Origin: Octopus vulgaris
Taxonomy: Eukaryota
Direction: 5' to 3'
NCBI GenBank assembly: GCA_951406725.2
Contig: OX597820.1
Location: 33,356,001-33,420,000 of the forward strand
Length of the DNA stretch: 64,000 nt
Position numbers and translations under genes: made by a program. The notes under the pieces were generated by a model, which worked only from the letters and a program-made list of their open reading frames with translations, did no database searches and had not been told where the DNA came from. Of this stretch, positions 4,653 to 38,357 are shown one piece after another (within the stretch, counting starts at the first letter, position 1; each line of letters starts with the position of its first letter).

Positions 4653-5222
<570 letters not shown>

Positions 5223-5325: not shown

Positions 5326-5376
<51 letters not shown>

Positions 5377-5451
5377 AGTAAACATATTTGTATGCAAGTC
5401 AGTATTAGCTACAAAAGAGGAATAAAAAGAAGGCGAAGGTAATGATGACGA

Positions 5452-5485
<34 letters not shown>

Positions 5486-6059
5486 GGTGGTGGTGGTGGT
5501 GGTGGTGATGAGGAAGAGGAGGAGAGTGATGACGACGACGATACAAGGTTGATGATTGTAATGGTGATGACGACGACGATTCATTACCATCATCACACTG
5601 AAGGAGATGAAGAAGAAGAAGGGGGAGAAGGAGGAGGAGAAGAACGACGACAACAACAATAACACAAAAGATGTGAAGCAAATGCCGCAGAGGAAAAAAT
5701 TTATATTAGCAAGAAAGATTTAAAGATAACAAAACAAAAGAAAACATACAAAACAAATTCGTGTTAAAAAAAACGAAAATAAAAAGCGCAAAGAAATTCG
5801 TGTTAAAAAAATAACATAAAAGAAGTGTTAAAAAAATAACATAAAAGAAGCGTAAAAACCTATTTTGACAAAAATATTTCTGTGTCGTTGACCGGGTGAC
5901 CGAACTTTGACAGTTACTGGTCGGCCAGATTTGATTGGCAAATAAGTGTGCATGACGTCACAGCTTGATCTTTTCTTTATGCAATTAGAAACTGAAATGA
6001 TAATTGTAATGTGAGATAAACTGTATATTTGAACATATGTATATCTATATACATTTATG

Positions 6060-6931
<872 letters not shown>

Positions 6932-9505: not shown

Positions 9506-10078
9506 TATGTACTATATATAAATCATAGCCGCCTTTGTCGGTATGTTAATTCGTCTGTTTTTGTTTTGCGAAACATTTAGTACATCTATAAAATGTTGTA
9601 AACATTATTTCATCATCCATTTCTACATTTACAACCTGGTCACTGACACAGTTTCATTACATCTTTTGAGAAACAGTTGGTGTTTTGTTCTACTACACCG
9701 TGGTTGAGATTTGCAAGTCTTTTTTTCTTTCTTTGTTCTATTTTTTTCTCTTAAATTTCCGCCCACGTTTTTCTCAGACCAGGCCAACAACTGACTGGTT
9801 TCAATCAAGTTAAATGCAATGAAATAATCTCAGCAAAATTATTAGACACCTTATGTTTTATGGAACAATGCTATTAATATCTTCAGACAATAAGACAGCA
9901 CTCCGGGCAAACTTTTTGACGGCATTTTGTCCGTTTTACGTTCTGAGTTCAAATCCTGCCTTTCATACTTTGGGGATCAATAAAATAAATACCAGCTGAG
10001 AGCTGAGGTCGATGTAAACGACTTACCCCTTCCCCCAAAATTGCTGGCTTTATGCCAAAATTTGAAACCATTATCAAA

Positions 10079-10690
10079 AGGCGGCGTGCTGGCAGAAACG
10101 TTAGTACGCCGGGCGAAATGTGTAGCCGTATTTCGTCTGCCGTTACATTCTGAGTTCAAAATTCCGCCGAGGTCGACTTTGCCTTTCATCCTTTCGGGGT
10201 CAATAAATTAAGTACCAGTTACGCACTGGGGTCTATGTAATCGACTTAATCCCTTTGTCTATCCTTGTTTGTCCCCTCTGTGTTTAGCCCCTCGTGGGTA
10301 GTAAAGAAATAGGTATTTCGTCTGTCTTCATGTTCTGAGTTCAAATTCCGCCGAGGTCGATTTTGCCTTTCACCCTTTCGGGGTCAATAAATTAAGTACC
10401 AGTTACGCACTGGAGTCGATGTAATCAACTTAATCCGTTTGTCTGTCTTTGTTTGTCCCATCTGTGTTTAGCCCCCTGTGGCAATAAAGAAATAAGAATC
10501 GTTAGCACGCTGAGTGAAATACTTAACGGCATGTCGTCTGATTTCACGCTATCTGTTCAAATTCTGCCAGGATCGACTTTGCGTTTCATCCTTTTCGAAG
10601 TCGATAAAAAGTACCAATGAAACACTGGGGTCAATGCAATCGACTAGTCCCCTCCCCAAAAATTTCAGGTCTTATGCTTTTAATAGAAAG
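10079..10690 (+). mobile_element. Family B SINE cluster with a tandemly repeated internal module
   Basis: One head followed by two ~180-bp Nin-plus-tail modules, then a third diverged copy. Confidence 0.8.
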
Positions 10691-10719
10691 TATTATTGCT
10701 ATTACTATTTTTATTCCTT

Positions 10720-11798
10720 CGTAACACAGGGCAGGTAAAAATGCACCGGAGTTTTTGGTCATCTATCAAGTCACAACAAGAATCTCAGACAAATAATACT
10801 TTCCTTAAGATGTGTACGGTGCCCATTAAGGCTGCTTTTTGCAAGACATCAATCTTGCATGGGATTTCCAGTTGCCTTACGAAGTCTTGAAATTCCAATG
10901 GGATTGAGCCCAGCGCTCTGATCACCACTGGTATCACTTCTACATTAACCTCTCGCATTCCTTACAGTCTTGCCATTTCCACTTTCAATTCGGAGAACTT
11001 GATGATTTTTTCAACCTCTTTTCTCACAACATTCATGTCATTTGGTATGGCTACATCAATCATCTGAGGGTATTTGTCTCTCTTAAGGCGGCGAGCTGGC
11101 AGAAACGTTAGCACGCCGGGCGAAATGCCTAGCCGTATTTCGTCTGCCGTTGCATTCTGAGTTCAAATTCCGCCGAGGTCGACTTTGCCTTTCATCCTTT
11201 CGGGGTCGATAAATTAAGTACCAGTTATGCTCTGGGGTAGATATAATCGACTTAATCCGTTTGTCTGTCCTTGCTTGTCCCTTCTGTGTTTAGCCCCTTG
11301 TGGGTAGTAAAGAAATAGGTATTTGTCCCCCTTATTCAATATGACAATATCCGGTTGATAGTGTACGATTACACGATCCCTTTGAAAATCATAATTTCAG
11401 AGTATTGTTACTTTTCCATCCTCCTGCATAACTTTACTTGGTACATGCTCATACCAGTTCTCTGTTACTTCATATTGGTATTTACGACATAAGAGCCAAT
11501 GAAGATACACACACGCTTTATCGTGACGGCGTTGGTATTCTTTTTGTGCAAGGCTCACTCATTCACTTACCAAGTGGGTCACATTGTCCACGCTCTTTCC
11601 ACAGAGTCTACATTTCTCGGTGTCAGAAGTTTTATAGATGTTATACTTCACTGAATTGGTAGCGAGGGCCTGGTCTTGTGCAGCAATGATCAGGCTTTCG
11701 GTGGTACGCTTCAAATAACCTCGCTCAAGCCATGCCCACAATGCTGAATTATCCTTAACGTCTTGTCTATTCCTTTCAAACTGTCCATGCATTTTCAT
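10720..11798 (-). mobile_element. R4/Dong-clade non-LTR retrotransposon 3' fragment (CCHC motif and REL endonuclease), interrupted by a SINE
   Basis: Reads MHGQF...WLERGYLKRTTESLIIAAQDQAL...CRLCGKSVDNVTHL, then PDIV, IDVAIP, KEVEK-like, VIPVVI and LQKAALMGTVHILRKVL. Confidence 0.85.
11086..11317 (+). mobile_element. Family B SINE with ~17-bp TSD inserted in the R4/Dong relic
   Basis: Flanks are GGTATTTGTCTCTCTTA (11069-11085) and GGTATTTGTCCCCCTTA (11318-11334). Confidence 0.85.
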
Positions 11799-12174
11799 TA
11801 CTATTATTATTATTATTATTATTAAGGGGGTGAGCTGGTAGAAGCGTTAGCATACGCTTTTTATGCTTTCGGGGTCGATGAAGTAAGTACCAGTTGAACA
11901 TTGGGGTCCATGTAATCGACTCTACTGCTCCTCCAAAAATTCGGGTCTTGTGCCTATAACAGAAAGGACTATTATTTCTGTTGTTGTTGTTATCAAAGCT
12001 GCGAACTAACAGAATCTTTAGTGCGTCGAACAAAATACTCAGCAGCATTTCTTCGAGACTCTATACGTTCTTGGTTAGTTGGTTAGTTTGTCCTGTTCTT
12101 ACATCATATAGAAAATTTGGGGTCCAGTCGATAAGTCGACCCAAATACGCAATTTATCCCCCTCGAAAAGCAAA

Positions 12175-12456
12175 GCCGACCTTGACGGAATTTGAACTCA
12201 GAACGTGACGGCAGACGAAATACCTATTTCTTTACTACCCACAAGGGGCTAAACACAGAGGGAACAAACAAGGACAGACAAACGGATTAAGTCGATTTTA
12301 TCGACCGCAGTGCGTAACTGGTACTTAATTTATCGACCCCGAAAGAATGAAAGGCGAAGTTGACTTCGGTGGAATTTGAACTCAGAACGTAGCAGCAGAC
12401 GAAATACCGCTAGGCATTTCGCCCGGCGTGCTAACGTTTCTGCCAGCTCGCCGCCT
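12175..12456 (-). mobile_element. Family B SINE
   Basis: Reverse complement of the 11086 copy. Confidence 0.85.
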
Positions 12457-12942
12457 TGAATTTAACCAATAAAAAAACATCGAATATGCCAAACAACACT
12501 TCAGACACAGTCTCTATGCGTTGCAGAATAACAATGAACCGTACGTGAAGACACAATTTTTTAGGATTAAAACACGCATAAAGAGAAAACTAAAAGATAT
12601 ATATATATAAGGTGAAATTTCAGGTTCTGGGGGGTAAACAAACCAAACACTGGTTGTCAAGCAGCAGGGTAGGGTGGAGGACACAAAAAAAAGGCACAAA
12701 CACACGCATACACGCGCATATGTATATTTATATTTACGATGGCTTCTGCAGTTTCCGTCTACCAAATTCTCTCACAAGGGGTGAAGAAAGGACTTGGAGG
12801 GTGAGGAGAAAAGAGAGTGGAGTAGGGAAGTGGAGATTGGGAGAAGGAAGAGGATACTGGGGAGTGGATGGCAGGGAAGGAGGCGGAGAAGGAAGAGAAG
12901 AAAGAAAAAAAGAAAGGAAGAACGAAAGAAAGGAAGAGAGAT

Positions 12943-12989
<47 letters not shown>

Positions 12990-13033
12990 ATGGAGGAACA
13001 AGAAACAAAGAAAGGCATGAAAAGAAGAAAAAA

Positions 13034-13543
<510 letters not shown>

Positions 13544-13903
13544 AATCGCTAATTCGGTAAGGTCATCATAGATGTCTTTCGATGTTGTAAACAGTTTCAC
13601 ACCTGTTGAAGCAGTCACCAGTCAGTCCAGGTGAAAGTTAATTAGTAACTGCCGATTTATTTATTTTCATGGCAGTTTTGAAGTTTGCTGCTGCTGCTGC
13701 TGCTACTGCTGCTGTTGCTACCGCTGCTGTTGTTATTGTTGCTATTGTTGCTGTAGAGTTTGCTAACCAAATGTCAGCTGTTTCTCCTCAGTGGGGTAGA
13801 TGGAGTGGTTTGGTAATGGATGTGAGGTAGGGGCGGTGTTGTATCAGAGAGTGGACTGTAGTGGCGGCCATGTGGAGAGGAGGTGCTGAATGGCCAAAAC
13901 GAG

Positions 13904-13952
<49 letters not shown>

Positions 13953-15049
13953 AATTGTTTAGCCACGAGTCAGTCCTGATCCAGGTAACATGTCATCCAA
14001 AACAAGTTGTTATTGTCGTTGTTATTAATGCAAGCACGCCGGACAAAATACCTCGGAGCATTTCGTTCGACTTTACGTTCTGAGTTCAAATTCCACCGAG
14101 GTCGATCATGCCTTTCGTCTGTTCAGGGTCGATAAAACAAATACCAGTTTGAACACTGGGGTTCGACGTAATCGACAAGCCTTCTGCCTATAGTAGAAAG
14201 AGTCGTAGTTGTTGTTATTATTATTGTTGTGGTTCTTCTTATTGTTGTAGTTGTCGTCATCGTCGTCGTCATTGTTGCTGTTGTTGTTCTTGTTGTTTAG
14301 CTTTAAACCAGTCCTGATTCAGTAGACATGTAATCCAAAGTTCTCCATTCGTAATTATTCTGTTCCTTTGATGTATGTGTGAATGTGGTGTGTGTGTATG
14401 TGTGGAAAGAGAGAGAGAGAGAGAGAGAAGGGGGAGAGAGAGAAGGGGAGAAAGAGAGAGAAGGAGAGACAGACAGACAGACAGACAAATATATACACAG
14501 ATAAACAGACAAATCTTTAGACAGGAAAGTGTTAAAAATATACGTTCGTGGTACTATCAATATCTGAAAGAAACTTGGGGTGAAAGCCAGTGTAGAGTGT
14601 GAAATTTTAATGATATTCTTTTCTTCTGTAGGCACAAGGCCCGAAAATTTGGGGGAAGGGGCTAGCCGAATTAGATCGACCCAGTACGCAAATGGTACTT
14701 AATTTATTGACCCCGAAAGGATGAAAGGCAAAGTCGACCTCAGCGGAATTTGAACTCAGAACGTAGCAACGGGAGAAATATTATATAATATAATATGTAT
14801 AAGCGTGTGTGCTTGAGAGTGAGTGACTGAGAGGAGGGGGATAGAGTGCCATGTGGCAGGAATTAATTTATAATTATTCATATTCTTGGGAATATCTGGT
14901 CAATAACATCGAGCTGAAGTGTGATAGACAACACAGAAAAGTCTACCTACTGATGCTTAAGTGGCTACGAAATTATCTACGTTCCGCATGCGATATGTTG
15001 GAAGATGACAACTAAGCTAACAATAATAATCTAAATATCGAATCTAAAT

Positions 15050-15475
15050 TTTGGCACAAGGCCAATAAATTCGAGTGGTTGGGTAAGTCGATTACATCGA
15101 CCCCCAATTTTTAACTGGTAACTTATGTAATCGACTCTGAAAGGTTGAGAGGCAAAGTTGACCTCGGCGGAATTTGAACTCAGAACGTGAAGGCATGCGA
15201 AATGCTGCTGAGCATTTTCCCCAGCGTTGCTAATGATTCTTATTTCTTTATTGCCCCACAAGGGGCTAAACATAGAGGGGGGACAAACAAGGACAGACAA
15301 ACAGATTAAGTCGATTACATCGACCCCAGTGCGTAACTGGTACTTAATCTATCGACCCCGAAAGGATGAAAGGCAAAGTCGACCTTGGTGGAATTTGAAC
15401 TCAGAACGTAACGGCAGACGAAATGCTGCTGAGAATGTCGCCAGGCGCGCTAACGATTCTAACAGCTCGCCGCCC
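15050..15475 (-). mobile_element. Two adjacent family B SINEs
   Basis: Reverse-complement matches to the family B pattern. Confidence 0.8.
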
Positions 15476-15901
15476 TAATAACAGTCTAAATATCACCAAC
15501 ACTGCCAACACAACCATCATTATCCCCATCACTATCATAGAAACCCAAATAATATAGTTATATTTATATTAAGGGGAGAGCAAGCGATCTTCAGGGTAAT
15601 CTGTGTAAATGAGATGCATACCGATATACGATACGAGTCCCGTGGATAGGCCTGGATCTGCTATTATGCTGAATTGGTAGTTGTATCATATCATCGGTGT
15701 AAGGCGTTGAGCTGGACAAATGATTAATGGAATTTCTTCCGGCTCTTTACATCCTATATATATGTGTGTGTGTGTGTGCTTGTGTGTCTGTGTTTGTCCC
15801 ACCAGCATCGCTTGACAACCGATGCTGGTGTGTTTTCGTCCCCGTAACTTAGCGAGGTACACAGAGAGTTAACATAAGCATATAATCATTAAATATGCAA
15901 T

Positions 15902-16290
15902 AGGAGTGGCTGTGTGGTAAGTAGCTTGCTTACCAACCACATGGTTCCGGGTTCAGTCCCACTGTGTGGCACCTTGGACAATGTGTCTTCTACTATAGCC
16001 TCGGGCCGACCAAAGCCTTGTGAGTGGATTTGGTAGACGGAAACTGAAAGTCGTATATGTGTATATATGTGTGTTTGTGCTTGTGTGTCTGTGTTTGTCC
16101 CACAAACATCGCTTGACAACCGATGCTGGTGTGTTTACGTCCCCGTAACTTAGCGGTTCGGCAAAAGAGACCGACAGAATAAGTACTAGACTTACAAAGA
16201 ATAAGTCCTGGGATCGATTTGCTCGACTAGAGGCGGTGCTCCAGCATGGCCACAGTCAAATGACTGAAACAAGTAAGAGAGAGAGAGTAA
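15902..16290 (+). mobile_element. Family A CORE-type SINE, near full length
   Basis: tRNA-like head GGCTGTGTGGTAAG..GGTTCAGTCCC, CORE-like GCACCTTGG, tail AAATGACTGAAACAAGTAA. Confidence 0.9.
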
Positions 16291-16685
16291 AGAGTATACT
16301 TTTTTATATTTAGATGAGATATTGTTTTCTTTTTCTTTTATGCAAAATGTCAAATTTAGCGCGAACACCCTGTATTTATGCGCGCATGCGTATATATATA
16401 AGTGTGTGTGTGCGTGTGCGCGCGCGTGTGTGTGTGTGTACTACAAACCACTCAACCCCATTACACGCCACTACTAGAGGTACCGTCAAAATGACAACAA
16501 CCACTACTATTACTGCTACCACCACCATTGCTACCACCGCCAACGCCATAGTTGTTATTACCATCAGCACCACTTACCATCAACGCTACCACCACCACCA
16601 CACTACCATACTACCACAACTACTACCACTATCATTAAAAACACCACTGCCAGAGCTCCTGTTGCCACCATCAACAACACCAGTG

Positions 16686-16828
16686 AGGAGAAGAAGAAGA
16701 AGAAGAATAAGAAGAAGAAGAAGAACAACAACAACAACAAAAACAACAAGCAGAAGAAGGAGAAGAAGGAGGAGGAGGAGGAGGAGAAGAAGAAGAAGAA
16801 GAAGAAGAAGAAGAAGAAGAAGAAGAAG

Positions 16829-16866
<38 letters not shown>

Positions 16867-17125
16867 AGACAACAAGCAGAAGAAGGAGAAGGAGGAGGAG
16901 GAGGAGAAGAAGAAGAAGAAGAAGAAGAAGAAGAAGAAGAAGAAGAAGGACAACAACAACAACAAAAACAACAAGCAGAAGAAGGAGAAGAAGGATTAGG
17001 AGGAGGAGGAGGAGGAGGAGGAGAAGAAGAAGAAGAAGAAGAAGAAGAAGAAGAAGAAGAAGAAGAAGAAGAAGAAGAAGAAGAAGAAGAGCAACAACAA
17101 CAACAACAACAACAGCAACAACATC
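16686..17125. repeat. Compound trinucleotide repeat (GAA/GGA/ACA) with a three-fold higher-order structure
   Basis: The block (ACA)n-AGCAGAAGAAGGAGAAG-(GGA)n-(GAA)n recurs three times. Confidence 0.9.
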
Positions 17126-17253
17126 AACATACGTAGTATCCAGAACAGATGTGTGGATATTTTTACAGTTTGCTTTTTATCTTCAGTTTAATTCCGTTTG
17201 TCTTGATGGAACATAAAACTTAGCAGCTACTTGACAATTGAATAACAAAAACT

Positions 17254-17295
<42 letters not shown>

Positions 17296-17868
17296 ATTCC
17301 CTCTCTCCTCTCTGTCCCTTTATGTATGTATGTATGTATGTATGTATGTATGTATGTATGTATGTATGTATGTATGTATGAATGTATGGATGGATGGATG
17401 GATGGATGGATGGATGGATGTTTGTATGTAATGTGCGCAGATAGATATACATATTACGTATATACAGATAAATACTCATATATGTATATGTGCATGTATC
17501 GTGCGTGCGTGTGTGTACGTATGTGTGTGTGCATGTGAGTGTGTATGTGTGTGTATATATATAAATTCACACTAGTATGCATAGATAGATAGATAGATAT
17601 ACATATGCACACAAATATATATATATATATATTTGCATGTGTGCGTATGAGGGTATATATATACATATGAATACATGTTTATACACACACACATATATAT
17701 ATATACACACACACATATAGATATACAGGCACACATACCCCACACACACATATACACACATGCATGCATACATATATATACATTACTTCCACTTTCGTCA
17801 TTTTGTCGCCGCATGTGTATCGTTGGCGATTTTCTTTCTCCGTCTTCCCTTCTCTGGACTTTTTCTAT

Positions 17869-17904
17869 ATTTCTGACGAAGAGATTCCGGTCGAAACGTA
17901 AAAT
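17869..17904 (+). ncRNA. Minimal type I hammerhead ribozyme-like motif
   Basis: ATTT-CTGACGA-AGAGATTCCGGTC-GAAA-CGTA-AAAT: canonical CUGANGA and GAAA cores, stem I ATTT/AAAT, weak stem II, palindromic ACGT in place of stem III. Confidence 0.5.
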
Positions 17905-18511
17905 CTTCTGTCTTTTCTTTCCTTTCCTGAGCGTCCAATAATACTGTACTTATTCCATCTCCTCGCCTTGTTGTTTTTCGTTGTTTTTTCTTGCTTGTTC
18001 ATGTTTGGATTAATCATACATTCAGACATACATTCATACATACATACATACATACATACATACATACATACATACATACATACATACATACATACATACA
18101 TAAGTACTTACGTACGTACGTACATGCATACATAAATATATACATACATAAATATATACATATGAATACATGTTTATGTGTATGTGTGTATGCGTGTGCA
18201 TGTGTGTTTATGCATGTGTCTGCGTTTGCACTCGCGCTTTATCTGGAGATTGTATAGGAACCATCATCTAGAATCAAACAACATCGAAGAGCATAAAGTC
18301 AGAATCTACAGGGCGGGCATTGTTAGAGAGCTAATGACGAAATTGTTAGTGAAAGTTCTTTATGAGACCTTATACAAAGAAGAGCTAGCAGTGGACGACA
18401 AGCCAAGATTTGTATCAAGCAGATTTGTGATGACATAAACTGAAATCCCACTGACCTTCCGAACACGCTATGTTTAAGATAGCGTATTTTACCTTGTGTC
18501 ATATATTTGTG

Positions 18512-18564
<53 letters not shown>

Positions 18565-19096
18565 GAATGTAGTAATTAAGAATGAGCAGAAAAGTCTTTG
18601 CAACTGCTATGGAGTAGCTGAAATATTTGCAGAGTTTCATTGCTGCCTCTTTGTATCTATGGCAAACTACACTATTAATAGTCCTCATATCTTCAAATGA
18701 TGTAGGTCCGGGAATATGATTTAGTAAAGCTCTCAGATAGAATTGCTCTTGCTTCTTTAGTGAAAGTAGATACCCCCAATTGAGTGTGTATTATTTTTTC
18801 TGAGTTGCCACATTTTCTCACAAAGTGTAAAATTCAGGGAAATTGAGTTATCTGGTGATTCCCGGTTAACTCGCATTCATTCAGTGAGAGTGGACCTGTC
18901 ATGTGTGTGGATAACATGTTCAATATCATCATCGTCATTAAAGTAAATGTATTGTTAGGATAAATGAACTGTAAACTGTTTGACTGCAGGATATGGACCA
19001 TGTAATTTTAACCCTAAAATCCTTCAGACTGCCTCTGGTGAGGATACATAGCGGCCATTGATATAATTTTCAATTTTATCTTTGTGAGTTTGTCGT

Positions 19097-33439: not shown

Positions 33440-34110
33440 TCTCGTAAGTCAGACCGCTACATAGTCCCAACAAACAAAATAGAAAAAGCGTTGTCCCAGA
33501 AGATGGCGAGAGAAATGCGCTGGAAAAATCGCTCTGGCTCATGGGTTCGCTCAAGTAGATAACTATCTCCACCCCAAAGGTGGTGAGAAGGGATATGATA
33601 CGGCCATAAACCTGTCGGAGAGCGACCGATACTTTGACAGTTTGCTCTTCTCAGCTTGACGAACAATGGAGCCTGGGATGGAGGTGTCACCCCGATGATA
33701 GGCCTACCGCCACGGCATGGGAAAATTGTCATACCATCAGGCTTTTTACCGTTCCCTTGGTCTAGCCTCGATGGCTCAAACTAGGAAGGGTAGCCTGCAG
33801 CGTCTAGACCACTCTTTATGATGCCTTTAAGGGTGGTATGGTGTGGGGGACGGTCAACACTATAGGGGCATAACAATGGGTGGAGGCCTAAATAAGGTAG
33901 CGTTTCTCAGTTGAAGGTAGACCTCTTCTGAGGATTGAGGAGGACAAATTTCCACGTTTAATAAGATTAAGATGGCTAGTGGCCAAGATCAAGGAGGTAT
34001 TCGGAGATCTTCCTAGAGACACAGTGAGGAAAGCATGCACCAGGATCCAGAGCCATCTTGGTGGAGACTGGGGGTGTCTACTTTGAGTAAACTGTTACCT
34101 CCCTGACATA
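33440..34110 (-). mobile_element. CRE-clade-like non-LTR retrotransposon 3' fragment (REL endonuclease)
   Basis: Reads HTTLKGIIKSGLDAAGYPS, FEPSRLDQGNGKKPDGMTIFP and FFQRISLAIFWDNAFSIL, matching the RH..LNDII / EP.GL...DGKRPDG / FQR.S.AIQRGNA pattern. Confidence 0.7.
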
Positions 34111-34366
34111 ATCTAGTTGATATTCTTTGACTTTCTAAAATACTTTAATTTTTGGATTAAATATTGTTTTCTTTCCCTTTAACGCAAACTGTCAAAATTA
34201 GCTCGAACATCCTGTACACACGCACGCGCGCGCTTCTTTCAGTTACGGTTTAACTGATCCACTTACAAAGCTTTGATCGGCCTGAGGCTGTAGTAGAAGA
34301 CACTTCCCGAAGGTGCCACCCAGTGGGACTGAACCTGGAACCATGTGGTTGGGAATCAAACTTCTT

Positions 34367-36279
34367 TATTTCATTACATTTGCCATAAAGGCATAATACA
34401 GATGGAAGCCTTGCAGGCTGGACACAGACACAATGATGATGATGGAATGAAAACAGAGATGGTTGGTGGGGGAAGCAGCCAACGACCGCCGATTGTCACT
34501 TCCCGATAACATTGTTCTTATTTTTTTTAAAAAAACACAAATGAGGCATTGCACCTCTTACAACAGTTACAAATTGAGGCGCTGAGCCGCTTACCAATCA
34601 AAATAAGTTCAGCAAATATATTCAACTTCAGGCGCTAAGCCTCTTACCAAAATCACCAAATTAAAATCGAGGCACTAAGACTTCTTACACTGCCTCCCCG
34701 ATTAAGTCTCTTGCCGCCTGCAGTCGCAAGCCGGGGCTCCATTAGAGATAATTATATTCGTCCTTGGTAAAGGAATCCATCACTCTGTAGAAATAATTTT
34801 CCACAATGACCTCCGCAGCTACCTGCAGAAGCCAATCCGGGCTTTCAAGGCAGTTCAGGACATCCTGTTCCTGACCTTCCAGATTCCTCACAAAGTTCTC
34901 TACGGCCCCTCCCTTAAGAAAAACCACAATTCCTCATTTATTATACTGGGAGGGGCTACAGTTTCCTCCGTCGGTGGCACAATTTCTACTGACGAGGTTT
35001 CGGGACATACCGGCAGTGTCCCATTCTATTCTTTTTTTTTGTCTTAGGGGGTGGTTCCTCTGCTTTAATCGGAGGATCATCGCTCCCTCCCGCAGCTTTA
35101 TGATCCTTCGGTGAGCAACCAGTTGCCCACCTTCCTTTTTTTCGGCGAGATTTCTCCCTCCGGAGGAGGCTCATCCACAACCAACTGTACCAGGACCCTA
35201 CTCTGGTCCTGGGAACAGTTCTTTTTTATATGGCCCGGTTCCAGGCATAGGTGACACTGGGGGGGGGGGGGGCAGGACGCGTCCCTTAAGAATCACCAGG
35301 TATCTGCAACCGGCCATTTTCAAAAAATCTGGAAAAACTAGATTCTTGGTTGATTGGGTCCATAGGGTCAAAACAGCTTTTAACCCAACCCTATCAGCCG
35401 CCGGCAAAATTTTAACATTAGGCAGCTTGGATCCGCTGCCAGCCAGACCCCGGGGGATAGTGTCTTCTATCCACACGCGTTCTATCCCGGGTGGCAACCC
35501 GCAGACCCAAGCTCTTGTCAACTTCTTCCCACCATACATGGAAAGAAACAAAATCTCTTTGCCCTCTAAGGGCTGGCACGCAAATTTGCGAGCCTCAAAT
35601 AGCAACCACACCGTTGCATACTTGATACCCCTGGAGATGAATTTAATAGTTGGCAAATACTCTGCCAACTCTTTTTCAGTTTGTGTCTTTTGAAAGAGGG
35701 CGATGATTTCGAGCGACTTCCAGTAAGTCCTTAATACCCCCGTCCTCTCTTCAAAGTTTTTCATCTACTGTTTGAGTGGGACAATCTCCCACTCTAACGC
35801 AGTGTTACCTTTTTTGCCATGTTTTTTTGGGGAAAAAAGTTCACAGAGTTAAAAAAAAACAAATGCAGGAAGACAAAAAAACAGTTCAAAAACACAGCAA
35901 ACTAATTTTCTGGCTATCTTGGTACTCCTGACCAATTAGGTAATCCACTTGGTAATCCAGAGCATAAAACAGTCACACAATTTCCCCAAAAATTGGTAAA
36001 AATTAGCACAATTATAGGAGGAGGGATACGCCCCCCCCCCCCCAAACAAAAAACACTTCTCACCGCTAAGTGAGACTTTAAACACAACTACAAGCAGACA
36101 ATTTGCCAGGAACTCAGTGGAGATTTCTCGTTCGACAAAATATATAAACACGAGCAACAAACCCCCAAAAAACGAATATTTTACCTTGTAGTTGTGCTTC
36201 ACTTGTTCAATAATTCACGACGGTGTACAGCGTTGTGACTCCTAGCAGTGCAAAGAAAACACTGACCAACGCATGCGCA
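34367..36279 (-). mobile_element. ORF1-only (HAL1-like) non-LTR retroelement with 16-bp TSD, inserted in a family A SINE
   Basis: TSD copies GGGAATCAAACTTCTT (34351-34366) and GGGAAGCAAACTTCTT (36280-36295). The host SINE rejoins across the insertion. AATAAA at the 3' end. Gag-like ORF with CX2CX4HX4C and no RT. Confidence 0.75.
34742..35820 (-). pseudogene. Disrupted gag/ORF1-like protein with CCHC zinc knuckle
   Basis: The 188-aa ORF 35764-35198 continues after a poly-C frameshift as QCHLCLEPGHIKKNC, then a Lys/Pro-rich linker and a C-terminal segment ending at 34742. Upstream ATG at 35820. Confidence 0.65.
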
Positions 36280-36353
36280 GGGAAGCAAACTTCTTACCAC
36301 ACAACTACGCTTGTGCCTATTTTAAACCAGATGTAAAAGGCAATAAAAAAAAA

Positions 36354-36735
36354 GGCGTACCTGTGTGGTATGAAACTTGCTTCCCAACCACATGGTTCCG
36401 GGTTCAGTCCCACTACGTGGCACCTTGGGCAAGTGTATTCTACTGCAGCCTTGGGTCGACCAAAGCGTTGTGAGCGGATTTGGTAGATGGAAACTGAAAG
36501 AAGCTCGTCGTATATATATACATATATATATTTGTGTGGCTTTGTGTCTGTCCCCCACCATCGTTTGACAACCGATGTCCGTGTTTACGTCCCCGTAACT
36601 TAGCGGATCGGCAAAAGAGGACGTTAGAATAAGTACCAGGTTTACAAAGAAATCTTGGGGCTGACTTCTTTAAAAATCCCTTTAAGGCGGTGCTCCAGCA
36701 TGGCTGCAGTCAAATGAGTGAAACAAATAAAAGAA
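36354..36735 (+). mobile_element. Family A CORE-type SINE
   Basis: Matches the 15902 copy. Confidence 0.85.
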
Positions 36736-38357
36736 TATATATTGCTCTCCATTCTCTTTTCCTGCCATGAGAATAAATAAATACAAAGATACAGTAGTAG
36801 CCAGAAGCAAAATGCTTTATTTACCAAAAGAAGAAAAAAATATATATATATTTGTTTTAGAATATATATATGCTTGGAATTATATCTCACATACATTTGT
36901 GAAAGCCTGAAGTTAGCAACAGACGTTGAGAAACCATAGCTGGAATTTACAAAATAGGATTTGGAATGGCAGGGAGACAGCAGACAGAACAAGAATTATG
37001 TTGTGGACAATGGCATTTTGGAAGTGGTCACACGGTGGGGGTCAAATCGAAGCAGTAGCCAGTCAATGTGGGAGGAGTGGCCAATCAGGCAGGTAGTGGG
37101 AGTGGCCGGACAACGTCGAGGTGGTGGCTGGTCAGAGCAGGGAGAGTAGCTGGTCAGCCAGGGAGGTGGGGATGGAGTGGCCAATAAGGGATTAGCGGTG
37201 GGAAGGAGGAGACAGGAATATATAAATATATATATTTTTACTTTAAAAAAAAAATGCAATTCTGGCAAGGGAGGCAACTTGAGGTAAGAAAATCTGGTGA
37301 TAGAATTAAACGATCAGGGAGGGTATCGTATTTATCCAACCTTTGTTCCACTTCCAAAGAAATAAGGTGGCTTGATGGGTGTGGTTGGGGTATGTCATTG
37401 TAAGAATCTCGCAGTGGCAATATCATCCCCAGATACCACAATCACAAAACTAGCCCTTATTTTTCTCTTTCATACACATTTTATTCCTAATACTGACAAT
37501 ACCAAACGTTTTGGAAGATGGGCACAGTGGATGAAATCGACCTTAGTATTTTGTTGGTACTTTATTTTATAGACCGAGAAAAGATGAAATGCAAAGTTGA
37601 ACATGGCAGGATTTGAGTGTAAAACATTTAGTTCAACTCTCTGCCAACGCTAACATTCCACCAATTGTAATCATGGAAAAAGTTAATTAGGAATAAGGGT
37701 AATTATTGAAGAAGAGAAAAAGCAATTATCTTTTTATTTAATGAACCACTCTCAATCTACCATCACCACACCATAAACACTTATTTTATCAAGTCCCAGA
37801 GGAATGAAAGGTAAAGTTGACCTTGGCAGGATTTGAACTTAGAATCAAGAATGATGACTGGAGGGGGTTTCAAATACTATACTGTACTTTTAAGTCCAAT
37901 ATTAAACTGCTTCAGCCATTTAAAATATCTTTGTGTAGTAGTATCTGTGGTGATAGAAATATGACTAATAATAATAATAGTGTCTGATTGAGGCACAAGG
38001 CCAGCAATTTTGCGGAGAGGGAATTAGTTGATACCAACCTCAGTAGACATCTGGTATTTATCAACTCTGAAAGGATAAAGCCAAAGTTGCCCTTGGCAAG
38101 ATTTGAACTTTGAACACAATAATAATAGGAACAAAGCTAAAAATTTAGGGAGAGTACACAGTTGGTTCAATCACCACTTCCATACCCACTATACTAGATA
38201 GTACCCTGGTTATACTTTAATCCTAGAAGGATGAAATCAAACTGAACTCAATGTTAAAGGATGTAATTATATACCATTGGACATTATGTCTTAATAAATG
38301 CATAAGGAGAACAGGGAATCATAGATGTAATGACTAGTGTATCCTGGATCCTTTCTA

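Follow-up and report, generated by a model that had tools for sequence, protein, structure and literature searches.

Why would a SINE in an octopus genome be split by an element that encodes an ORF1-like zinc-knuckle protein and no enzyme to copy it? We studied this question in a 64-kb stretch of Octopus vulgaris DNA (the window, by which we mean the whole stretch that was analyzed). A preliminary description of this DNA had suggested either that the element is non-autonomous, with an ORF1 of its own and a borrowed ORF2, or that it is a retrocopy of a domesticated gag-like gene. We favor the first idea, which is supported by dispersed copies with the same ends, by intact ORFs in young copies, by purifying selection, and by the existence of a matching LINE. 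Specifically, with a probability of roughly 87%, the insert belongs to a multi-lineage ORF1-only family that inserts at a fixed base of a SINE and would depend for its copying on a 5.45-kb L1/Tx1-type LINE, which shares its site and its kind of tail and would supply the endonuclease and reverse transcriptase in trans.

The insert and its boundaries

The insert is 1,913 bp long and lies on the minus strand at 34367–36279 of the window, with 16-bp direct repeats on each side that differ by one mismatch. If the insert is excised in silico, then the restored SINE aligns through the junction with other SINEs in the window (74–83% identity over 100–160 nt by BLAST), so the two halves are one SINE. 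This is how the preliminary description had read them, and its worry that the repeats might match by coincidence between two separate SINEs can be dropped. The features are:

34367..36279, minus strand: ORF1-only retroelement of lineage A, full-length but decayed; its ends are common to about 10 other full-length copies of 1.9–2.07 kb
36280..36295, minus strand: 5' copy of the 16-bp target site duplication (TSD), from direct-repeat comparison
34351..34366, minus strand: 3' copy of the TSD, from direct-repeat comparison; its first two bases finish AATAAA
36296..36318, minus strand: 5' half of the host SINE head, with an A-box-like motif at its end, from SINE comparison
34229..34350, minus strand: downstream host SINE sequence, with a B-box-like motif and the body, from BLAST of the empty site against other SINEs in the window
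35821..36279, minus strand: 5' leader, 459 nt, variable between lineages, from alignment of copies
34742..35820, minus strand: ORF1, disrupted, with its ATG at 35820 and its stop at 34742–34744; intact relatives have 395–420 amino acids
34742..35820, minus strand: parts of ORF1, namely two predicted RRM-like domains, the CCHC knuckle, a basic disordered linker, and a helical C-terminal part
35215..35256, minus strand: zinc knuckle CX2CX4HX4C (Pfam zf-CCHC, E = 0.0025, below the cut-off)
34367..34741, minus strand: 3' UTR, about 375 nt
34405..34414, minus strand: anti-target motif, an approximate reverse complement of the landing site, in lineage-A tails only
34381..34393, minus strand: predicted hairpin with a 4-bp stem and a 5-nt loop, about 14 nt from the 3' end, common to the autonomous LINE

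This layout agrees with the earlier estimates of a leader of about 460 nt, a disrupted ORF at 35820–34742 with the CX2CX4HX4C knuckle, and a 3' UTR of about 370 nt. The insert was also said to lack an endonuclease and a reverse transcriptase, and tblastn for ORF2 finds no match anywhere in the 64-kb window. ORF1 is broken by a frameshift directly past the ATG, by a stop near 35765, by a frameshift in a run of C's near 35270, and by more shifts at about 35100–34930. The AATAAA that had been placed at the terminus is present, but the element itself stops at GAAATA and the TSD supplies the last two A's (in L065, the boundary reads AATA/GAG). There is no poly(A) tail in any copy examined.

The leader probably contains an internal Pol II promoter. 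About 95 nt into it (36181–36186, minus strand) is a motif resembling a splice donor, AG/GTAAG, which is kept in most of 12 aligned copies and reads GTAAAA in the window copy; no spliced joint was listed for the leader despite this GTAAG. We also note some neighboring features. A second, uninterrupted SINE of the same family (36358–36740, plus strand) lies back-to-back with the split SINE, about 40 bp away. There is a 380-nt inverted repeat at 6024–6403 and 6481–6860 (96% complementary, 77 nt apart) with SINE sequence and microsatellites. Finally, 33800–34100 contains what we take to be a resemblance to the end of a Tc1/mariner transposase; Pfam has no match to the 61-aa frame at 33901–34086.

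An ORF1-only family and its probable partner LINE

In a genome of 227 contigs totaling 2.8 Gb, a search with the insert yielded 2,751 candidates, of which 40 were scored, giving 54 matches. The matches scored include about 10 full-length relatives with both ends conserved and 75–88% pairwise identity. The 3' end was visible in 19 of the copies from this search, and each time it falls on the same base of the SINE head, directly past the A-box-like motif; one of these copies is inverted. A protein search identified a young lineage of 2.25 kb with an intact 414-aa ORF that ends about 290 nt before the same SINE junction, as well as more lineages that differ in leader and C-terminus. The check that had been proposed beforehand was for copies with the same two ends, distinct TSDs, and no ORF2. 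There are many copies with the same ends and without ORF2, but their TSDs hardly differ, since the whole family is specific for a single base of the SINE head.

Among 180 places that encode a lineage-A ORF1, 151 end at the target without ORF2, 24 have neither an identifiable end nor ORF2, 3 are at loci that are too short, and 2 have ORF2. As a control, 27 of 32 places with the partner's type of ORF1 continue into ORF2. (Places were deduplicated by sequence.) A second ORF1-only group, B/C, is 1.4–1.7 kb long and uses the same site (i.e., L186, L190, L194, L184, and L195); 9 of 11 of its ORF1 places end at the target. The ORF1 of B/C is about 39% identical to the partner's and is closer to it than lineage A is; this group is possibly of separate origin. 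One lineage-A element (L044/L185) sits at the target without the usual tail or hairpin at its 3' end, yet ends in AAATA at the exact base.

Sampling that began from the junctions found ORF2 sequence at the same SINE site. Full-length copies of this partner are 5.45 kb and encode a CCHC ORF1 and an intact 1,133-aa ORF2 with APE, RT, and zf-RVT domains (Pfam Exo_endo_phos, 4.9e-12; RVT_1, 1e-27; zf-RVT, 1.1e-8). The same SINE site is occupied by 29 of 30 partner ORF2 loci (28 in the first survey, plus L125). The closest solved structure to the partner's ORF2 is L1 ORF2p. The partner is probably of L1/Tx1 type, with Tx1 suggested by its target preference and its domain content. Intact young copies of the partner exist, and they have the same TSD as the ORF1-only elements. 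The partner and the ORF1-only elements are alike in nucleotide sequence only across about 28–37 nt at the 3' end (BLAST E = 0.03). This shared tail, the shared site, and overlapping ages suggest that the partner mobilizes the ORF1-only elements in trans.

The passengers are several-fold more numerous than the helper in a sample of 73 junctions (43 of the 158 with one SINE variant and 30 of the 623 with the other). ORF2 was present at 8, ORF1 alone at 44, and no ORF matched at 21; 20 of the last 21 have tails that are nearest to ORF1-only elements.

The partner itself occurs with many different 5' ends and with ORF1 variants that are 49–58% identical (L159–L178), and its ORF2 is more conserved than its ORF1 (mostly 75–90%). 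It is probably not what mobilizes this SINE, as the 3' ends of the SINE and the partner do not match. There is a 27-nt TG-rich match (85%) between the second half of the SINE body (L128, 9380–9400) and the partner's 3' UTR (5374–5400), which may be low-complexity chance.

Could the ORF1-only copies instead be recurrent, recent products of deletion or early termination of an autonomous LINE with the same ORF1? The preliminary description had noted that copies running on into ORF2 would point this way, and such copies turned up at just 2 of 180 loci. Internally deleted copies of the partner do exist (L167 and L168). Also, because our genome searches scored the best 150 of about 10,000–19,000 candidates, they could have missed an autonomous element that carries a lineage-A ORF1. 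However, both of the junctions look recombinant. In L137 (the same locus as L062), the switch (sense 4850–4900) comes partway through the 3' UTR, beyond the stop of ORF1, and leads to the last part of the partner's ORF1; L026 jumps at about 2890 from the middle of ORF1 to residue 665 of ORF2. These are likely to be template switches or deletions between tandem units. Furthermore, the lineage-A ORF1 is only about 25% identical to the partner's, it forms its own branch (SH-aLRT 100 in a quick tree of 83 rows, kept from 138 matches once near-duplicates were removed), and it has diversified to dS above 1 without ORF2. We consider the deletion scenario to be quite unlikely. Together with L329–L330, L137 and L026 are chimeras between an ORF1-only element and the autonomous LINE or between lineages.

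It is slightly less likely still that the elements are mobilized in trans by a different L1/Tx1-type enzyme. The sequence in common with the partner is short, and octopus annotation has 80 L1-Tx1 consensus families, according to the accessible part of the PMC13282606 supplement. But all nine of the ORF2-type insertions among the 73 junctions (eight by ORF2 match and one by its tail) were detected with the ORF2 or tail of this partner, which has intact young copies and the same TSD.

The target site and a proposed copying reaction

The site TTCTT/A had been viewed as just a T-rich position of the sort that L1/Tx1 endonucleases nick, but the whole family uses one fixed base of the SINE. Genome-wide, 304 of 326 exact tails adjoin AAGWAG, versus a random expectation of about 0.05%. 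We checked 8 of the 22 off-pattern tails: 5 are in variant SINE heads and 3 begin with AAG and then depart from the SINE. Across two SINE variants, there are 158 and 623 exact occupied junctions, or 781 in total, as compared to at least 76,647 exact empty sites, so occupied junctions are about 1% as numerous as empty ones. Reversed-pattern controls for these junction counts gave zero.

The insertions are independent of each other. Identity among 13 core young copies is 99.6%, but among the SINE halves that flank them it is 92.8%, close to the 93.6% among 15 empty SINEs. Private variants are present in both copies of the TSD (L001, L065, L071, L074, and L089), 5'-truncated copies have their own TSDs of 8–16 nt (L033, L035–37, L041, L048, L193, L226, and L227), and there is an inverted insertion, in a near-palindromic site (L009/L239). 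Nearly all copies have the same flanks, as would be expected if a single insertion into a SINE master copy were followed by amplification of the composite SINE, but flank diversity already refutes this scenario; the private TSD variants, the truncated copies with TSDs, the inverted insertion, the use of two SINE subfamilies, and the many unrelated 5' ends also speak against it, and we give it almost no credence.

The SINE head aligns loosely with genomic tRNAs, with A- and B-box-like motifs in place. No parent was apparent among the 30 tRNA loci of six types that we compared (Arg, Ala, Thr, Cys, Lys, and Glu only), and Rfam gave no tRNA match in the SINE at E values up to 5 and no other meaningful match. 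OR2 is named as an octopus CORE SINE in the portion of PMC4758252 that was accessible. With the insertion, the A-box-like and B-box-like motifs are separated, and this copy of the SINE would likely be silenced. The site is likely to be a safe harbor for the element.

Some single SINEs hold 9, 8, 7, or 4 units head-to-tail, with one 16-nt site between units:

8-unit array: L320–L322, G000:C1:223.69–223.71 Mb
9-unit array: L325–L326, C10
7-unit array: L323–L324, C5
4-unit array: L327–L328, C1

The 9-unit array contains units of four lineages, and the last unit of the 8-unit array is an intact-type partner. Repeated units are 97.7–100% alike. One lineage makes most of the repeats in an array, usually upstream of another element. 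Such arrays may have grown through sequential insertion and also through template jumping and local duplication.

We propose the following cycle. Transcription would start at about the 5' TSD, which would give an RNA with a short target-derived tag at its beginning. The element's own ORF1 protein would coat this RNA in cis. The partner's ORF2 would recognize the 3' hairpin and the GAAATA end, not poly(A); its APE would nick the bottom strand at TT/ACC, past the A-box-like motif, and reverse transcription would be primed there. The top strand would be cut up to 16 nt downstream, where annealing of the RNA tag would produce a precise 5' junction. Every insertion would remake the site, so later insertions or template jumps could build arrays.

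The predicted hairpin is common to all of the element classes, and 125 of 148 junctions keep every one of its 4 pairs. Its outer pair covaries, being Watson–Crick in 39 of 50 distinct 13-mers (20.9 if shuffled), although the counting started from the core motif, and the figure is inflated by related copies, which are not independent. Among 20 young copies, the 3' TSD deviates from the common form in 8. The 5' TSD carries the 3' variant in L089, part of it in L071, and all of it in L074, where an extra donor-type copy comes next; in L066, L077, L081, L083, and L087, its distal end is donor-type. This pattern suggests that the element's RNA begins with a target-derived tag. As for transcripts, a 2,083-nt contig from a run that we presume to be RNA covers 827–2887 of L069, and contigs of one presumed RNA run cover the partner in pieces; the contigs do not show start, end, strand, or poly(A), and we give them no weight as evidence.

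Does the RNA itself contribute to the choice of target? Of 141 lineage-A junctions, 81 of the 84 with GCTAC or GCTAAC tails are at AAGTAG sites and all 30 with GCTTC tails are at AAGAAG; the other 27 have other forms of the motif. Three copies are exceptions to this association, which is also confounded by lineage and age. Complementarity between tail and target exceeds that of shuffled sequences in lineage A (7.3 vs. 4.8), but not in the partner's tails (4.2 vs. 4.7) or in the B/C tails. Also, pairing with a read-through TSD explains the association as well as pairing with DNA does. It is conceivable, though we would bet against it, that the ORF1-only RNA helps to steer the borrowed enzyme, with the anti-target motif pairing, as insertion proceeds, either to the target DNA or to the read-through TSD. 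If true, this would be a coding passenger with its own RNA-based targeting aid that is several-fold commoner than its helper.

The ORF1 protein and known systems

For ORF1 we used natural intact copies, which made a consensus ORF needless. In P0001, P0004, and the partner's ORF1, Pfam found only zf-CCHC: there was no match to L1 ORF1 and nothing for the C-terminal part. The RRM-plus-CCHC architecture that had been suggested as a check is what AlphaFold2 predicts (from 20 natural sequences), although mean pLDDT is only 55. The model has two beta-alpha-beta-beta-alpha-beta domains (about residues 27–98 and 104–181, with block pLDDT of 76–90 and 55–83, respectively), followed by the knuckle and a low-confidence tail. 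Foldseek's best matches are tandem-RRM proteins (E from 3.5e-5, with low TM-scores). VIA-align matches the La RRM (Z = 8.0, rmsd 2.6 over 79 residues), but the top Z-scores, 7–8, are near background. L1 ORF1p is not among the fold matches listed, which excludes nothing. In the Atlas, CCHC clusters score 0.91–0.92 and a ZCCHC3-like cluster scores 0.90.

A dN/dS comparison, also suggested beforehand, gave a median of 0.18 between lineages (0.11–0.28; Nei–Gojobori, residues 17–203, 136 of 153 pairs with finite dS above 0.3, in a set chosen for long open frames). By this measure, ORF1 is under purifying selection between lineages. The C-terminal part is far less constrained (0.17–0.79). Between the window copy and its close relatives, dN/dS is 0.49–0.58, and a higher value is expected after insertion.

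Are these retrocopies of a domesticated gag-like host gene? LOC115225585, which is 75% identical, is annotated as a gene in Octopus sinensis, and there is the ZCCHC3-like cluster. But there are many lineages, with different leaders and C-termini, that all use one site and have a LINE-type tail without poly(A), and no parent outside of a SINE was among the loci seen, so this too is highly improbable.

The octopus system works like HAL1 or HeT-A but belongs to neither. (Our statements about published systems refer to the accessible portions of the cited papers.) The family does have what defines an ORF1-present non-autonomous LINE, one ORF1-like protein and a LINE 3' end. HAL1 elements have an L1-type ORF1p and a poly(A) tail, whereas 304 of 326 octopus tails directly adjoin the target. 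HAL1 (half-L1) of mammals is a non-autonomous LINE derivative with ORF1p only (PMC5753468, PMC5786205), and the octopus family resembles it in being ORF1-only, non-autonomous, and multi-copy with TSDs, with several ORF1-only lineages per genome. So the HAL1-like label that had been given to the insert fits its lifestyle but not its clade: HAL1 comes from the L1 clade, while the ORF1 from the octopus combines a CCHC knuckle with two predicted RRM-like domains and has no Pfam match to L1 ORF1, and the octopus family is site-specific, lacks poly(A), and lives in a mollusc. The ORF1-only LINEs named in the accessible text of PMC5786205 are HeT-A, HAL1, and Ag-Sponge, which belong to the Jockey, L1, and CR1 clades, respectively; no Tx1 element is among them. 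Ag-Sponge, which is CR1-derived and for which no site specificity is mentioned there, is from an invertebrate, so the ORF1-only habit is not limited to vertebrates (PMC5786205).

HeT-A of Drosophila, like the octopus family, is ORF1/Gag-only beside RT-bearing partners (TART and TAHRE) and forms mixed head-to-tail arrays with them at a single type of site, but it is Jockey-derived, adds to chromosome ends, and maintains telomeres (PMC5537684). In contrast, the octopus element is internal, has 16-bp TSDs, is in dispersed SINE sites on many contigs, and has no known host role, and among solved structures the partner's ORF2 is nearest to L1 ORF2p.

Target-specific Tx1-clade LINEs include Tx1 in Tx1D, Keno in U2, Kibi/Koshi, and Tx1-Mar with SINEU (PMC4494074). 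As in the octopus, an APE-RT LINE prefers a site in another repeat and non-autonomous passengers use the same site. However, the targets named in the accessible text are DNA transposons, LTR elements, snRNA and 5S genes, satellites, and microsatellites, with no SINE head among them, and the SINEU passengers are non-coding, while the octopus passengers encode an ORF1 under selection (PMC4494074). PMC13282606 counts L1-Tx1 families in O. vulgaris, with no mention of targeting in its accessible part. A literature search, which covered sources other than subscription papers and Repbase, found no published description of a SINE-targeted ORF1-only system. The families may already be deposited in Repbase or Dfam without their biology being described.

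As far as the accessible literature goes, then, what is new is the joining of the ORF1-only LINE habit to Tx1-type site specificity, each of which was known separately, and the class of target, a SINE head. The result is a three-level dependency of SINE, LINE, and ORF1-only passengers. With both helper and passenger intact and young, it should be possible to test directly why non-autonomous elements keep their own ORF1, by what means a LINE recognizes its RNA in the absence of poly(A), and whether the RNA has a part in choosing the target.

Octopus sinensis, O. bimaculoides, O. vulgaris, and Argonauta hians have named homologues of ORF1 or ORF2, so the genome searched is likely that of an octopus. 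Of these homologues, a single one, P0003 of O. sinensis (LOC115225585), at 75% identity, is in the same ORF1 lineage; the others are 25–61% identical. Such ORFs are being annotated as octopus genes: ORF1 relatives appear as host genes in octopus proteomes (P0003, P0185, P0187, and P0189), and one has the unrelated name EPM2A-interacting 1-like. More distant ORF1 relatives (P0190 and P0331–P0333) are on Logan contigs of 1.85–1.93 kb, which is the size of an ORF1-only element.
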